The position numbers and the translations under genes were made by a program. The notes under the pieces were generated by a model that was not told where the DNA came from, did no database searches, and was given only the letters and a program-made list of their open reading frames with translations. A stretch of DNA of 64,000 nucleotides from Eledone cirrhosa (taxonomy: Eukaryota): the NCBI GenBank assembly GCA_964016885.1, contig OZ024741.1:158472001-158536000 (forward strand), given 5' to 3'. Numbering within the stretch: position 1 is the stretch's first letter; every line of letters starts with the position of its first letter. Below, piece by piece: positions 6,868-51,633 of this stretch.

Positions 6868-7596
6868 CTACAACGGTACGCGATTGGACCCACCCACAGC
6901 CCTGGCGGACAGAATGGAGAAGGCGTTTCGCCGGAGGACGGCAAGGGAGACGCGCTGGAAAAGCCACTCCAACTTGCGGGGCTCACACCTGCGGCTGGCC
7001 AGCTCAGCGCCCATGGTGGTGAGTAAGGCGGTAGCCCTGGGGCCGAGGACACCAGAAGTCTCCACTGCCAGGGTTACGACCGCAAACCTGTCGGAGAGCG
7101 ACCGGTATTTGAGGAGTTTGGCCCCCTCAGCCCGACGTGCAGCAGAACCTGGGTCAGTCACAGACTGCACCAGGCTGCGGCTGCAGAAAGTGTCGGTGCA
7201 AGTGGCATCCCAGACGAGGGGTTTGCCACCGCGGAACGGGAAGATGGTCATGCCATCTGGCCTTTTGCCATCTCCTTGACCCAGCCCCACCGGCTCGAGC
7301 TGGGAAAGGAAGCCTGCAGCGTCCAAGTCATGCTTAATGACCTCGTTGAGGGCAGCATGGCGTGGAATGTGGCCGGCACTGTGGCGACAGGAAAGCGGGT
7401 GGAGGCCGAAAGAGTCCACGGTGGAACCGCAGCGACATTGGTGTGGCTAGCAGATCCGGAGGCCGAGCCTCAGGGAAACGCCGATTCGCAGGCTATGGTT
7501 GTCTAGCTGCGTGCCAGTGGAGAAGGAGGGCAGGGCATGGAGCCAGGCACCACTCTGGGGTTTGGAGGCCACACGAAAACAGGCAAGGCGGTGCAT
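6868..7596 (-). mobile_element. CRE-like non-LTR retrotransposon 3' fragment (zinc knuckle + restriction-like endonuclease)
   Basis: HPLSCRHSAGHIPRHAALNEVIK...EPVGL..GDGKRPDGMTIFPFRGGKPLVWDATCTDT (RH/PD..D motifs); GC-rich; paralogue at 62520. Confidence 0.8.
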
Positions 7597-31398: not shown

Positions 31399-32558
31399 CT
31401 CCTAGCTGATTAACCTCAGTGTCACGTGATTGATTCTTTTGAATTTGCCACTTGACCAAGTAGGCAGTGAATTTTTCGATGTCTTGGAATCTAGCCCCGC
31501 TCGCTTTTTTCCATCCACTGAATTATTTTTATATAAGTTCCCAGTGTCCCCTCATTGCCTGGAAGCTTAGCTGAGAATAGACTCCCTGATGACGTAAGGC
31601 TTCTCTATGGATACACTCTGTAACCATATTTATCCCCTTACAGAAACTAATTAGTTGGAGTGAAATTTTAGTAAGTAAGTCAATTTTCATAACTTTCTTA
31701 TTTACGTCTTTCATATAATTGTTCTGCATCCCCTTGCATAGAACCACAAAGTTACTAAGACGAAACATATATATTTGCTAGCATAGGTATGCATCTGTAT
31801 ACATATGTCGGTAGATATATTAATTCTTTATAATTATCTCCAAATTATTTGTTGAGCAAAATTTGCCGAAATTACTACTGTGATTAATAGTAGTGGCTAG
31901 GCTCTGTCTTAATAGCACCCCCACTCCTAGCTGATTAACCTCAGTGTCACGTGATTGATTCTTTTGAATTTGCCACTTAACCAAGTAGGCAGTGAATTTT
32001 TCGATGTCTTGGAATCTAGCCCCGCTCGCTTTTTTCCATCCACTGAATTATTTTTATATAAGTTCCCAGTGTCCCCGCATTGCCTGGAAGCTTAGCTGAG
32101 AATAGACTCCCTGATGACGTAAGGCTTCTCTATGGGTACACTCCGTAACCATATTTATCCCCTTACAGAAACTAATTAGTTGGAGTGAAATTTTAGTAAG
32201 TAAGTCAATTTTCATAACTTTCTTATTTACGTCTTTCATATAATTGTTCTGCATCCCCTTGCATAGAACCACAAAGTTACTAAGACAAAACATATATATT
32301 TGCTAGCATAGGTATGCATCTGTATACATATGTCGGTAGATATATTAATTCTTTATATATATATATATACATATATATATAAAGAATTAATATATCTACC
32401 GACATATGTATACAGATGCATACCTATGCTAGCAAATATATATGTTTTGTCTTAGTAACTTTGTGGTTCTATGCAAGGGGATGCAGAACAATTATATGAA
32501 AGACGTAAATAAGAAAGTTATGAAAATTGACTTACTTACTAAAATTTCACTCCAACTA

Positions 32559-38024: not shown

Positions 38025-39235
38025 CTCTCGGGTCTCGAATAATCGTACCCCAACCCATTTATTAATTTTTCAGACACCCCACCCCGTTCTTATTCCAACC
38101 ACCCTACTTATTAAATTTTGCTAATCTCCGGCGAAATTTTATTTTAAGTGGTAATATTTTAGTGGTAATATTTTAGTGGTAATATTTTAGTGGTAATACT
38201 TTAGTGGTAATATTTTAGTGGTAATACTTTAGTGGTAATACTTTAGTGGTAATATTTTAGTGGTAATATTTTAGTGATAATATTTTAGTGGTAATATTTT
38301 AGTGGTAATACTTTAGTGGTAATATTTTAGTGGTAATACTTTAGTGGTAATACTTTAGTGGTAATATTTTAGTGATAATATTTTAGTGGTAATATTTTAG
38401 TGATAATATTTTAGTGGTAATATTTTAGTGGTAATATTTTAGTGATAATATTTTAGTGGTAATATTTTAGTGATAATATTTTAGTGGTAATATTTTAGTG
38501 ATAATATTTTAGTGATAATATTTTAGTGGTAATATTTTAGTGATAATATTTTAGTGATAATATTTTAGTGATAATATTTTAGTGGTAATATTTTAGTGAT
38601 AATATTTTAGTGATAATATTTTAGTGGTAATATTTTAGTGGTAATATTTTAGTGGTAATACTTTAGTGGTAATACTTTAGTGGTAATATTCTAGTGGTAA
38701 TATTTTAGTGGTAATATTTTAGTGGTAATATTTTAGTGGTAATACTTTAGTGGTAATATTTTAGTGGTAATATTTTAGTGGTAATATTTTAGTGGTAATA
38801 TTTTAGTGGTAATATTTTAGTGGTAATATTTTAGTGGTAATACTTTAGTGGTAATATTTTAGTGGTAACATTTTAGTGGTAATATTTTAGTGGTAATATT
38901 TTAAGTGGTAATATTTTAGTGGTAATATTTTAGTGGTAATATTTTAATGGTAACATTTTAGTGGTAATATTTTAGTGGTAATATTTTAGTGGTAATATTT
39001 TAATGGTAATGCAACAATTAATTTTCTTTATACATTAAAAACCATTACATATGACAAAAAAGCACATTACTAGAAATCCCATATGTTATAAAATAAATAG
39101 AATGGTTTGGGTATCTCAATATGTAAACTAAACGACTAATACGGGTTTTTAAAAAAATCAACGGAGACAACCTAGAAAAATTACCGACTCTCGCCCCCGC
39201 TTATTCCAAACCCCCTATTATTTGGGACTCGAGAG
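38025..39235. mobile_element. Non-autonomous TIR element carrying a satellite
   Basis: CTCTCGGGTCTCGAATAAT (38025-38043) vs reverse complement of 39217-39235, CTCTCGAGTCCCAAATAAT (16/19); shared subterminal cttattccaa motif. Confidence 0.6.
38146..39010. repeat. 14-bp minisatellite (AGTGGTAATATTTT)n, about 60 copies
   Basis: Directly visible; clustered variants AGTGATAAT.. and ..AATACTTT. Confidence 0.97.
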
Positions 39236-44666: not shown

Positions 44667-46600
44667 ATATATATATATGTTAAAGCAGAACAGAAAAACA
44701 ATAACGGAGAGTGCAGTAAAAAGTGTTAGTATTAGGCTCACGCTTGAGAGTGGGGGTGGGGGACTACGTTTCGGGCATAAGCCCTTCATCAGGAGAAAAG
44801 TGGGAAGGAAAAGAGTTCCGAGGGTGGGGGGGGGAAGACATTTAAAAAGGGGGGATTAAAGGGAAGGAAGACAAATTAAAAAGGGGGTAAAAAATTAAAA
44901 TGAGACAAGTGGTGAAAGGGTGTGAGGCGTGTGGGGTGGGGGTGGATGGAGGAGAGGGGAAAGGAAAACAGGGGTTTCGAGCGGGGAGGGCGGAAGGTGG
45001 TATGTGTGTAGTGTACGTGTGTGTGTGGATGTGAGTGTGAGAGTTTGGGGAAGAACGAGGTTCCACGTTCCGGTAATAGGAAAACCAGTGTGTACATGGA
45101 GTGGGGTTTAAGTCAGTGCATGTGGATGGAGAGGGGTCAGAGGGGTGGGGGAGATGGGGGTTCGGAGTCCGAAGGCCGAGTATGTGTATGTGAAGATACG
45201 CACATGTGTATGTGTGTGTTTTTGTGTGGGGTGGATACATGGGAACGTATGGTTCCATGTGTGCGAAACTAGTGTAAGTGTTTGTGTGTGTGTGTTCCGG
45301 AATGTTTTCCCGCAAAGTATAGGAAGAGATGGTGAAAAATCCGAGTATAACAGGGTGGATGTCTGGAGCGGTGTGACCAGTGGTGTAGAATTCGTGGATT
45401 GGTGCGGAGGAAGTAGAGAGTTGTGGGGTGCGCGCGCAAGAGGAAGTGGTCAAAAGGGTCAAGGCAGGGCGAAGGATGCGGGAGAGAGGAGATAGCATAA
45501 GGAGGGTGACAGACAGGCAGTAGTAGGGATGAAGGCAGTTAGGAGGATGGCAGACGGACGAGTATTAGGGATGGTCTGTATGTGTTGCGGAGGTGCGGTA
45601 GCCAGAGGAGGGGATGGGTATGTGTGAAAGGTTGAGGGAGAGAGTGGCGGTGTGTGTGGAGGTGTTGGTAGTGTGTGGGGAGAGAGAGAGAGAAGGTGCT
45701 GGGAACAGTATGAGTGAGTGTAATGTACTGGTGCGTGTGTGTGTGCGCGTGTTTGGGTATGAGTGAGTGTGTGAGTGGTAGAGTGGGTGTTAGTATTATT
45801 AGTGGTGAGGGGTTGAATGCGGGTATGAAAGTGGGGGTTAGTGGTGGTATGTGGTGTGGAGTGGGTGGTGTATCTGTGTGTACGTAGGTGGTGGTAGTAG
45901 GGAGTGTGAATAGTGTGAGTGAGTGGATATATGTACTGGTGGGTGTGTGCGTGTTAAGGGTGTGGGTGCGCGTTTGATAGGGGGATGGGTGGGGGTGTTA
46001 GTATTATTAGTATTGGGGTGGGCCAAGGGGTGGGATGCCTGGTAGTGGAGGAGACGGTGAATCTTGGGAGTGTTTTAGTGGCGTTATTAGGGAGGGTGTA
46101 GGGAAAGGGACGATAGAAGACTAAAGGAAGAGGGTGGGGAGTTCAGGCCGCCGGGTGTGTGGGTCTGTAGGGTGAAGATGGTGTGTTGCTCGACCCTAAG
46201 GCGGGTTGCGGGGTCCCATGGCATTCGATCAGGCCACAGACGGTGAGGTGGTGGGCGGAGTGTCCAGGGGAACCAAAGTGGCGGGCGATGGGGGAACTCC
46301 CGCCGAGACGAATATCTCAGAGGTGCTCCGTGAACCGATTCGCCAGGCGACGCCCGGTCTGTCCGGCATAAGTTGCGCTGTACTCCGTGCAGAGAAGTCC
46401 GTAGTCGACGTGGAGGAGGTGCAGCGGAAGGCGTGCCGGACAGAGAGAGAGTGGCCGTTTGGGACCCTGGAAGGTGGTGGTGTTGGTGATGTGTTACTTT
46501 TCTACATTCGATATATATATATAGTGAAAATTGGAACGGGAACAAAAACAGAGAGGCAGTACAAACAAAGGTTTATTAGTTTCACGCTCTTGAGAGTGTG
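44667..46600 (-). mobile_element. Penelope-like element 3' part: GIY-YIG remnant (about 46110-46490), long low-complexity 3' UTR, HHR core at 44761-44795
   Basis: VDYGLLCTEYSATYAGQTGRRLANRFTEHLRDI..PIARHF..PGHS and EQHTIFTLQTHTPGGLN; CTGATGA-AGGGC ttat GCCC-GAAA-CGTAG-TC with no clear stem I. Confidence 0.8.
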
Positions 46601-46830: not shown

Positions 46831-47913
46831 AGATGATGCATGACATACCCTGACATATTAGATGGTTAAGATTCAGTCATGGTAGTGATTAACATATGAC
46901 AAAACTAAATATTTATACCCTAATATTGAGAACATGAGTAAAATATATAATACAAACAATAGAGAGGGTGCGTGTAATACAGCTTAAAAAATACATGGCA
47001 TCAATATAACAGTTAAAAAATATTTTTAAATTTGAAACTACTGAAGAAAGAGGAAAGAAAGGAAAGCATAGAGGAAGAAACAGCTGATGTGATAATATAT
47101 TTAGTAGGTGCCTCGAAAAACAAATGAAAGATGATTAAAGAGAGAGAGAGACAAAGGGGAGTAATTTATGTTCAAGTTTATAGACAATTATCTATATATG
47201 CAATATATATCCAAACTTATTTAGTTGACTGTTAATATTCAAAATATTTAATTTAAGTTATTTCAGAGTAATGAGTAATATTTTAGGTTTTAAAAGTTAA
47301 TAGGTATCTGTATTAATATTATATTATACTATCAAGTTTAATTTCTAAAATTCAAATTTTATGAAAACAAATTTAAAGGATTTACGAAACACGAGAAAGA
47401 AAATATATAATGCTTTTATACCCTCACGAAGGTAATCTTTACCAAAATTATTTATAATATTGACAAGAATTTATATAATATAATTTATAAAATAATTATA
47501 GTTATAATTATTAAAGAATTTATGATTAAACAGTTTGAGTGCCTAAAGGATCAACCGGCCTTATAACTAAACTTAAAGAAGTCTGAATTTTTAATTATAT
47601 ATATGTGTTAATCAAAAAATACACAAGGATTATAATGTCTAAAGACTTAAGGTGATACTTTTCAAATATATATAACATAATACAATAATTCAATATAGTA
47701 AATAAGTTACTGAAAATATTGTTAAAAAATATATATTGTTAGAATATATTGTTAAAAAATTAATGTTTTATATCAATTATTTTCATTTAGTTGATATATA
47801 CTATAAATATATAAGTCAAAACTCTCTCGATATGCAAATTAGGCTGCTCAGCCGTTAATATGCATAAGGAAAGTATATACTTTCAGACGTTCAATCATCT
47901 AGCAGGAAGGTAT

Positions 47914-47956
47914 ACGTTGCTGACGATAGCTAATAAGCTTGAAACTAGTACAGCGT
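47914..47956 (+). ncRNA. Hammerhead candidate, unit 1
   Basis: ACGTTG-CTGACGA-tAGCT aata AGCTt-GAAA-CTAG-TA^CAGCGT; predicted cut after 47950. Confidence 0.8.
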
Positions 47957-48344
47957 TCCTTTGTCAGTGTTGAACAAATGAGCAACGATGGTTGCTAGAC
48001 ACTGTACGGCTTAATTCGGGATGTTTGTTTACAAACACACCGAGCATTATAATAAATGTTCAGTGAATCCATACGTACATATATATATGTGTGCATGTAT
48101 GTATATATATATATATACATACTACTGTACGTCTGTATACATATATGTATGTACGTATACATACTTATATTTAAGTAACAGCCGTACTAAGAGTGAGAAA
48201 TGAAATTTCGTTTCATTTTTTCCGTTTATCTTTTCGGTACCCCGGCCGATTAACTCACTCGATATGCAAATTAGGCTGCTCAGCCGTTAATATGCATAAG
48301 GAAAGTATATACTTTCAGACGTTCAATCATCTGGCAGGAAGGTA

Positions 48345-48389
48345 AACGTTGCTGACGATAGCTAATAAGCTTGAAACTAGTACAGCGTT
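48345..48389 (+). ncRNA. Hammerhead candidate, unit 2
   Basis: Identical core to unit 1; predicted cut after 48382. Confidence 0.8.
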
Positions 48390-48676
48390 CCTTTGTCAGT
48401 GTTGAACAAATGAGCAACGATGGTTGCTAGACACTGTACGGCTTAATTCGGGATGTTTGTTTACAAACACACTGAGCATTATAATAAATGTTCGGTGAAT
48501 CCATACGTACATATATATATGTGTGCTACTATGTATATATATATATATATACATACTACTGTACGTCTGTATACATATATGTATGTACGTATACATACTT
48601 ATATATATATATAAATATAAATTCAGCGAGAATCGCATTTCGGCGGGTAGAAAAAGCGAAACGTAACGCAAATTCA

Positions 48677-50243: not shown

Positions 50244-50252
<9 letters not shown>

Positions 50253-51533
50253 ATACTTTGGGAGGGTCATGTTGCCAATAAGAAACACACGCACCAGTTG
50301 CTTTCACTTCAATTTATTATAATAAATTTATAAATTTAGGAATTTATAAATTTCTGGTTGGTTGGTTGGTTCCACAACCAGATAGTTGTTTATATATTGT
50401 ATGCAGTTCTCTGGTTACAATCAGAGAGATAAAATCAGAGTGTATAGAGGAGCCAGAACCAAATGGGAAAAAATGGTAAATAATGACGCAAATGGGACCT
50501 GCCCCTTGTATAGGAGCACATTTTGGAATAGAATAGAAAGAACTAGGAATAAGACTAATAGAATAAACTCATGGTATGATAGCAATAAATACCAGAGTGT
50601 AATGTTCATCGATACAACCCCTAGAGGTGAATTAGCTTACAAATTTAGAAGGGCCCTAGATAAACATAAACTCAATATTAAGATAGTAGAAAGACCAGGT
50701 ACCTCCGTAAAAACACTTATTAGCAAGACATACCCTTTTCAAAGAGCCCCCTGTATAGATAAGAAATGTATAACCTGTAAAATAAGCCCCCATATTAACT
50801 GTAAAACTAGAAATGTAGTGTATAGCATAAGATGTACTGAAGGACAATGTAGAGTCAAAAATATAGTGTACATAGGTGAGACAGCTCGTAGTGTAGGGGA
50901 ACGGATAAATGAACACTGGCGAGACCTTCAAGATAGTAAAGAATCATCTGTACTCTACCAACATGCTAAAATAGAACATAATGGTAAATTAGAGAACATA
51001 GAAATAAAAATAGAATCTACACACAGAAAAGACGCAATGTTTAGACAAATCACAGAGGCAATAAACATAAAAGAATTACAACCAAAATTAAATAGAAAAT
51101 ATGAGTGGAACAGCAACATCACAAATTACAATTAAGGACAAAATGAAAACACACACGCACATAGAACAAACAACCAACCGGTAACATGTAAATAAACAAA
51201 TAAATAAACGTATATAAACACACGCCGACACCCGGATGTGGCGCATGCGCAGACTGAGCACACAACACACACACAGAAACAAAATGGCGTAGGACAGAAC
51301 AAAGGAGAGGCACAAAAACAAAGAAAAGAATCCCAAGTCACTGAAGAGGTCACAGAATGTGTGACGAAAGAACTTTGACAATATATAAACAACTATCTGG
51401 TTGTGGAACCAACCAACCAACCAGAAATTTATAAATTCCTAAATTTATAAATTTATTATAATAAATTGAAGTGAAAGCAACTGGTGCGTGTGTTTCTTAT
51501 TGGCAACATGGCCCTCCCAAAGTATAACAATAT
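50244..51533 (+). mobile_element. Penelope-like element, 5'-truncated, with inverted terminal repeat; open GIY-YIG ORF at 50386-51135
   Basis: C....CITC......CKTRNVVYSIRC...YIGETARSVGERINEH...LYQH...EAINI..LN; IR arms 50244-50400 / 51378-51533. Confidence 0.92.
51337..51379 (+). ncRNA. Hammerhead candidate in the PLE terminal repeat
   Basis: GTCA-CTGAAGA-gGTCAC agaatgt GTGAC-GAAA-GAAC-TT^TGAC; predicted cut after 51375. Confidence 0.75.
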
Positions 51534-51633
51534 CCGTTTCAACACACGTTTTCAGATAAAGAATCTTGCTAAACAAATTCAGAAACGAAATATATATATA
51601 TATATAATTTGGAAACTCTGCTTCGTAGAATCG

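Follow-up and report, generated by a model that had tools for sequence, protein, structure and literature searches.

Results

Tandem hammerhead units in the Eledone cirrhosa window

The 64,000-nucleotide stretch of the Eledone cirrhosa genome analyzed here (contig OZ024741.1, positions 158,472,001 to 158,536,000, forward strand; hereafter, the window) harbors a 5'-truncated insertion, made up of a single arm, that spans 1.8 units of a 432-nt non-coding repeat (Table 1). Alignment of the two units (47820-48173 and 48252-48607) yields 96.9% identity, with 5 substitutions over the first 275 columns in addition to slippage at the TA/TG tract, and both units present a CUGACGA-stem II-GAAA core, an ACUAGU palindrome and a GUA triplet. 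The tandem hammerhead units described in the initial annotation were thus recovered, with both cores complete and the predicted cuts 432 nt apart, but the repeat starts at position 47820 instead of 47826. No credible ORF was found within the 432-nt unit, as had also been proposed for the sequence between the hammerheads: the ATG frames of at least 25 codons encode only 27-60 aa and, for the most part, read through microsatellite. The flanks of the insertion contain only a low-complexity near-repeat as a possible target-site duplication; (TA)n targets hide duplications. The window locus is an ordinary truncated daughter copy, and not a special dimer.

Several other repeats were observed in the window. 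At least six further, unrelated hammerhead-like motifs were detected (5652+, 7888+, 31317-, 31586+/32111+, 44792-, 46822- and 60627-), of which those at 31586 and 32111 stand in tandem, 525 nt apart, and have an oversized stem II. A 417-nt repeat is present in two copies of opposite orientation and 92% identity (7178-7594 and 62535-62951), and a 14-bp tandem array of 62 copies occupies positions 38140-39010.

Table 1. Features of the window copy and of the neighboring Penelope-like insertion. Unit position 1 corresponds to window position 47951.
Feature	Position	Strand	Remarks
Whole insertion, single 5'-truncated arm, 1.8 units	47820..48602	+	3' end at short site S (unit position 220), followed by (TA)n
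U6-type upstream element TATGCAAATTAGG, copy 1	47831..47843	+	Match to the element that 5 host U6/U6atac/MRP genes have at -77..-79
TATA box, copy 1	47874..47879	+	43 nt past the upstream element; 30 nt ahead of predicted start 47904
Type I hammerhead 1, extended stem I	47904..47962	+	Core 47920-47944; predicted cut after 47950
432-nt cut-to-cut monomer	47951..48382	+	Strong self-pairing predicted
Internal TA/TG microsatellite hairpin	48068..48170	+	Length differs among copies; S site at its end (48170)
59-nt tail between 3' sites S (unit 220) and T (unit 279)	48171..48229	+	Contains a hairpin
T6 run, possible Pol III terminator	48216..48221	+	Between the two ribozymes
U6-type upstream element, copy 2	48263..48275	+	In the second unit
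TATA box, copy 2	48306..48311	+	Predicted start 48336
Type I hammerhead 2	48336..48394	+	Core 48352-48376; predicted cut after 48382
Penelope-like insertion, two-armed, in (TA)n, separate from the unit	50248..51593	+	1.6 kb from the window copy; S/T layout, 60-nt one-sided tail

The unit belongs to a large family of dispersed copies

Searches of the host genome (3.0 Gb, microsatellite-rich) with the 34-nt core returned 5,653 exact matches, whereas the reversed control returned none, demonstrating that the hammerhead motif is not a chance occurrence. Sister subfamilies with an altered stem I account for 15,032 further copies, and the family is dispersed over many contigs. Either similarity or the core served to select loci L001-L090, and a pattern downstream of the cut served to select L091-L150, which comprise 60 of 65 new places. 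Counts of insertion ends are based on 139 loci, after removal of overlaps or duplicates (L007, L022, L099, L117 and L118) and of one long array (L085-L087). The median arm length is 428 nt, with 121 of 253 arms containing more than one unit and 22 more than two.

Copies of the repeat range from monomers to arrays of 10 and approximately 50 units. The latter spans 21 kb (L085-L087) and shows a 4-unit higher-order period in one of its halves. The 2- and 4-unit periods of the long arrays follow a pattern typical of DNA-level expansion, suggesting that some arrays grew later at the DNA level.

We also observed diverged sister repeats with covarying hammerhead stems (L114:1129-1454, L013:2929-3135, L137:781-968 and L138:1566), the first three at 62-67% identity to the unit. 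A distinct hammerhead family of 310 nt, also young, forms head-to-head arrays (L050, L063, L129 and L139); its stem II likewise has a basal U.U, and the 200 nt upstream contain no octamer-like element. Runs X4, X5 and X6, which like X1 consist of contigs and are labeled as three other organisms, yielded low-depth pieces of the unit.

The hammerhead is conserved in pairing, and the monomer is predicted to be strongly folded

Stem I of the hammerhead comprises 6-7 bp and, on the far side of an internal loop, 5 further bp, while stem II comprises 4 bp with a U.U mismatch at its base. The ribozyme thereby joins two traits described for axolotl hammerheads, the palindromic tetraloop on a 1-bp stem III (HHR_Amex1) and U.U at the base of stem II (HHR_Amex2). 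No Rfam hammerhead model matched at gathering score or E≤10, the hits obtained being microsatellite hairpins, and the isolated 61-nt motif folds no better than its shuffles (z about -1.1). The stems covary, with pairing maintained across subfamilies and self-cleavage as a prediction. One pair in stem I, U.G in most copies of the window type (142/154), reads G.U in most sister copies (29/33). Covariation was detected in 31 cells versus 12.6 (0/500), a comparison that is partly circular, as a pairing descriptor had been used to choose the 6 non-window rows. Among 64 unselected copies, 50 have an intact core.

The 432-nt monomer, in turn, is predicted to fold far better than shuffled sequences (z -8.39, 0/100 shuffles as good), and the corresponding values are -6.2 for the monomer without microsatellite and -4.0 for the reverse strand. 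In the predicted fold of the circular monomer, stems I and II form (p 0.47-1.0) and stem III does not; cleavage would therefore need a dimer, a requirement that has been reported for axolotl retrozymes. The initial annotation had envisaged that the two ribozymes dimerize in cis and excise a 432-nt RNA. The predictions returned the double hammerhead in only one of nine transcripts (47904-48394, p 0.17, versus 0.00 for 8 other start and end choices), and Pol III would terminate at the T6 run (48216-48221) without reaching the second ribozyme. Eight of nine retrozyme dimers showed no cleavage in vitro in the work reported by Li 2026 (10.64898/2026.07.22.740005).

Insertion ends bear the signature of Penelope-like elements

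Across the 139 loci, 217 of 256 3' ends map to two sites located 59 nt apart, with 116 at S (unit position ~220) and 101 at T (~279), while 5' ends are evenly spread along the unit. TA-rich stretches follow 89 of 121 S/T ends, as opposed to 10 of 35 solo 5' ends. The loci contain 88 head-to-head pairs, of which 66 have both ends at S/T sites, and 58 of these 66 present one arm at each site. The predominance of mixed S+T pairs was seen in two separately selected sets (31/36, p 6.5e-6, and 28/31, p 2.3e-6). In one two-armed insertion (L208 and L213; G000:C1:5540717-5543672), approximately 25 nt of flank past the TA run occur at both outer ends, in mirror orientation.

Penelope-like elements (PLEs) are reported to generate inverted 5'-truncated copies with a tail at one end only (Craig 2021, PMC8557442), and in vitro work has equated the PLE tail with the stretch between two internal sites of reverse transcription start, with both DNA strands being cut and extended and ribozyme cleavage being dispensable (Frangieh 2024, PMC11167929). 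The unit displays sequence traits of PLE-mobilized elements: two fixed internal 3' ends, a one-sided tail, an inverted 5'-truncated partner and AT-rich or (TA)n targets, together with the hammerhead that PLEs also carry (PMC8557442, PMC11167929). Unlike PLEs, it has no RT/endonuclease ORF; its 59-nt tail is longer than the 30-40 nt given for PLEs in these sources, and consists of non-coding sequence instead of the start of an ORF. The S/T 3' ends and the one-sided tail therefore support mobilization by a Penelope-like RT and, with it, the classification as a PLE-mobilized non-LTR retrozyme put forward in the initial annotation.

A neighboring Penelope-like family with a matching tail length

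The Penelope-like insertion located 1.6 kb from the window copy comprises a GIY-YIG-type ORF end (50386-51135) preceded by a C-X4-C-X2-C linker, together with a hammerhead-like core of its own (51341). Its short arm, which is inverted, runs from 50248, and the end of its long arm lies 60 nt beyond that of the short one. This 60-nt tail encodes the start of the element's own ORF. Its endonuclease fragment was not recognized by Pfam, but the element is 94% identical to an RT-bearing ORF in L068 that aligns with a Pfam-confirmed RT+GIY-YIG ORF. As a positive control, the PLE group to which it belongs shows two-armed insertions with a short and a long arm in five out of five cases, with tails of ~60 nt in four and ~46 nt in one. 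Apparent end spacings in other hammerhead families of the sampled loci are ~68-117 nt. The correspondence between the 59- and 60-nt tails therefore makes the neighboring family a candidate helper, by tail length only; low-stringency BLAST of the unit against masked loci detected no sequence shared with any helper and matched only sister repeats. On the reverse strand, positions 46229-46501 hold a fragment that looks like the endonuclease end of a different PLE family; L084 has a similar motif.

The unit carries a putative U6-type promoter

Five host U6, U6atac and MRP genes share the element TATG(C/G)(A/T)AAT(T/G)AG at -77 to -79 and a TATA box at -30. Under a promoter model based on these five genes, retained from 12 loci after the seven lacking the element had been excluded post-viewing as likely retrocopies, the upstream element of the unit scores 20.7 bits, compared to 12.8-17.7 for host genes left out, and the combined score of element and TATA box was reached by none of 1,044 control flank windows. 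The predicted start, 30 nt from the TATA box, falls on the first base of stem I in both units, 47 nt ahead of the cut. The upstream element is retained in sister repeats that are just 62-64% identical, and an octamer-like element was observed 98-100 nt before the core in L114, L013 and L138. The unit therefore combines the upstream element and TATA box of U6-type (type 3 Pol III) promoters, but its spacing between the two is 43 nt (123/126 copies; 22/22 sister copies) instead of the 47-49 nt of host genes. In 37 of 126 copies, 8 nt are missing after the TATA box.

A promoter of the U1/U2 type (Pol II snRNA) was considered and rejected, with the TCAG of the unit at -56 scoring -6.2 against 3.7-19.2 for host genes. 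The T6 run is present in 187 of 244 copies and the inserted arms cross it; template RNAs must therefore read through, and plain Pol III termination is an insufficient account. From sequence, the unit likely carries a U6-type promoter captured from the host's own genes, with Pol III use as a candidate. Among the host genes themselves, those of the Pol III snRNA type (L166-L168, L181 and L187) show the octamer-like element at -78 and a TATA box, those for U1 and U2 (L151-L153 and L188-L195) show TCAGT at -57, and the U1, U2 and U6 genes lie in long tandem arrays.

Hammerhead repeats with internal promoters have been described in newt satellite 2, of snRNA type for Pol II, and in a schistosome satellite, for Pol III (cited in PMC2220036). 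The unit resembles both in this arrangement, and differs from them, as far as these accounts describe them, in matching the element and TATA box of host U6/U6atac/MRP genes, with a spacing 4-6 nt shorter, and not those of U1/U2.

Insertions are probably copied from circular or uncut multimeric templates

A linear cut monomer was rejected as the main template, since the expected pile-up of 5' ends at the cut is absent (6/254 observed versus 7.1 expected). Among unselected matches, only 1 of 71 ends at the cut and 67 extend past it. That 5' ends ignore the cut site indicates that the templates are circles or uncut multimers. Within the window subfamily, rare variants are shared by units of the same short arm (12/319) and of opposite arms (21/529) 20-fold more often than between insertions (3.8-4.0% versus 0.19%). 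Eight insertions of a young sister subfamily, with 22 units in total, showed 0.96 differences per 160 nt within the same arm and 0.40 between opposite arms, versus 9.14 between insertions. This within-insertion identity fits reverse transcription around one circle from both ends of a break, and fits a homogeneous linear multimer equally well.

Conflicting subfamily markers occur within 9 of 56 short arms and between the arms of 12 of 63 insertions, a pattern that is not explained by a single circle. Single insertions with arms or units from different subfamilies were observed at L147, L120, L121, L049 and L054. Such mixed insertions suggest that two RNA templates were used at a single break, or that the template was switched there. 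Dimer circles, considered on the basis of two ABAB arrays (L083 and L047), were discarded because the end units differ from the inner units and because the 4-unit period of the 21-kb array resembles that of DNA-level expansion. Rare variants showed no excess of A-to-I editing scars (A>G/T>C ratio of 0.93-1.18), with a weak site-level signal (p 0.04).

Discussion

Alternative explanations

The initial annotation had named an ordinary PLE partial tandem terminal repeat as the alternative, in which the unit would be the pseudo-LTR of an autonomous PLE and the window locus its 5'-truncated partial tandem. The tail, the inversions, the TA targeting and the hammerhead are indeed all PLE traits, and 24 of 57 Xenopus retrozyme families are reported to resemble known transposable elements, 21 of 22 of which are PLEs (Li 2026, 10.64898/2026.07.22.740005). 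Against this, no joined RT and GIY-YIG ORF was found in a sample of ~140 loci, drawn from thousands. Among 79 solo 5' flanks compared with a library of 31 local ORFs, a same-strand PLE-like fragment lies within 800 nt in only five, each with its best match to a different ORF and at a different distance, and three of the five stand across the TA run. No ORF shared across these flanks adjoins the unit, which is therefore, in this sample, not an ordinary pseudo-LTR; a rare autonomous relative may exist elsewhere. Beyond the T site, moreover, the unit runs on into itself, whereas the neighboring PLE runs on into its ORF; none of the 10,479 contig records obtained on the unit in run X1 continues into unlike sequence, and arrays reach ~50 units. 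We therefore regard this explanation as very unlikely. More improbable still is a plain satellite, propagated by DNA-level duplication and carrying a fossil hammerhead. The higher-order periods of the long arrays, the proportion of unselected copies with an intact core and the lack of an Rfam match would agree with it, but the dispersal over multiple contigs, the fixed 3' ends, the randomly placed 5' truncations and the S+T rule are features left by target-primed reverse transcription, and not by unequal crossing over. The satellite reading holds only for later array growth and is largely refuted for the origin of the insertions.

A third account retains the same element and the Penelope helper, but has uncut linear multimers, read through from homogeneous arrays, as the template, with the ribozyme and circles playing no part in copying. 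It departs from our preferred explanation only at the step of cutting and circle ligation, and we consider it possible, if doubtful. Insertion by an anole PLE has been reported to be unaffected by hammerhead mutants, with unprocessed RNA as its main substrate (PMC11167929), and 5' ends that ignore the cut, the mixed subfamilies inside some insertions and the weakness of the predicted double hammerhead all agree with such a template. Conversely, each young insertion has its own haplotype, common to all its units and both arms, rare variants are markedly more shared within insertions than between them, and the pairing of the ribozyme stems has been kept across subfamilies, none of which is decisive against a multimer template.

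A probable PLE-mobilized retrozyme

The explanation that we favor, with a probability of roughly 0.8, is that the insertion in the window is one truncated member of an abundant family of non-LTR retrozymes, non-coding and with a predicted hammerhead and a likely U6-type promoter. A Penelope-like RT/endonuclease likely placed it in (TA)n, with circular RNA or uncut multimers as the probable template. On sequence grounds, the unit belongs with the non-LTR retrozymes, which are delimited by tandem repeats of ~150-450 bp with one type I hammerhead per unit (here, a 432-nt period), non-coding sequence with no LTR retroelement or PLE ORF attached (79 solo 5' flanks) and a self-paired monomer (here, by fold prediction). 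It shares with the metazoan non-LTR retrozymes described to date (PMC7229834; 10.64898/2026.07.22.740005) the non-coding tandem unit of a few hundred nt with a single type I hammerhead each, the low GC content, the self-paired monomer, the thousands of copies and the presence of PLEs in the same genome. The one-sided tail, the two-armed insertions and the internal promoter, by contrast, do not appear in the portions of these works covered here. For known retrozymes, PLE mobilization was proposed from co-occurrence and pseudo-LTR similarity (Cervera and de la Pena 2020, PMC7229834; Li, Clavereau and Pollet 2026, 10.64898/2026.07.22.740005), whereas no pseudo-LTR similarity was found for the unit. 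Non-autonomous Chlamys elements such as MRC1 are likewise PLE-mobilized and form multicopy head-to-tail insertions but, as described in PMC8557442, they share 3' sequence with their autonomous partners and mostly lack canonical hammerheads, while the unit has no such shared sequence. Our literature search, confined largely to the main texts of open-access papers, returned no report of a PLE end signature or an internal promoter in a retrozyme.

Under the favored explanation, the first base of the transcript would be that of stem I of the hammerhead, and the read-through RNA would be cut. As a lone stem III is too weak, cutting would probably involve a hammerhead dimer. The cut RNA may then be ligated into a 432-nt circle, stably folded and resistant to self-cleavage. 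A Penelope protein would cut both strands of a TA tract, and reverse transcription would begin at a separate internal RNA site for each strand and proceed back over the ribozyme junction until it falls off, with some arrays presumably expanding later at the DNA level. The window copy would represent one such arm, primed at site S.

More tentatively, these elements can be joined into a single picture, conceivable but short of probable, of a self-contained RNA parasite. Its captured U6-type promoter would start exactly at stem I, the sole condition (one of nine transcripts) in which the double hammerhead is predicted; the circle would carry its own promoter and two Penelope priming sites; and a Penelope dimer, with the neighboring 60-nt-tail family as helper, would copy one circle from both ends of a break, 59 nt apart. 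If true, this would constitute genomic proof of rolling-circle retrotransposition from circular RNA.

The transcription and copying of animal retrozymes have been proposed, but not demonstrated, in the reports covered here (PMC7229834; 10.64898/2026.07.22.740005). The family described in this work supplies exact, testable coordinates in the form of a predicted start site, two predicted sites of reverse transcription start and a candidate helper whose tail is of corresponding length; for Penelope proteins, an in vitro assay is available (PMC11167929). The family would also connect the Penelope tail with both ends of a single break.
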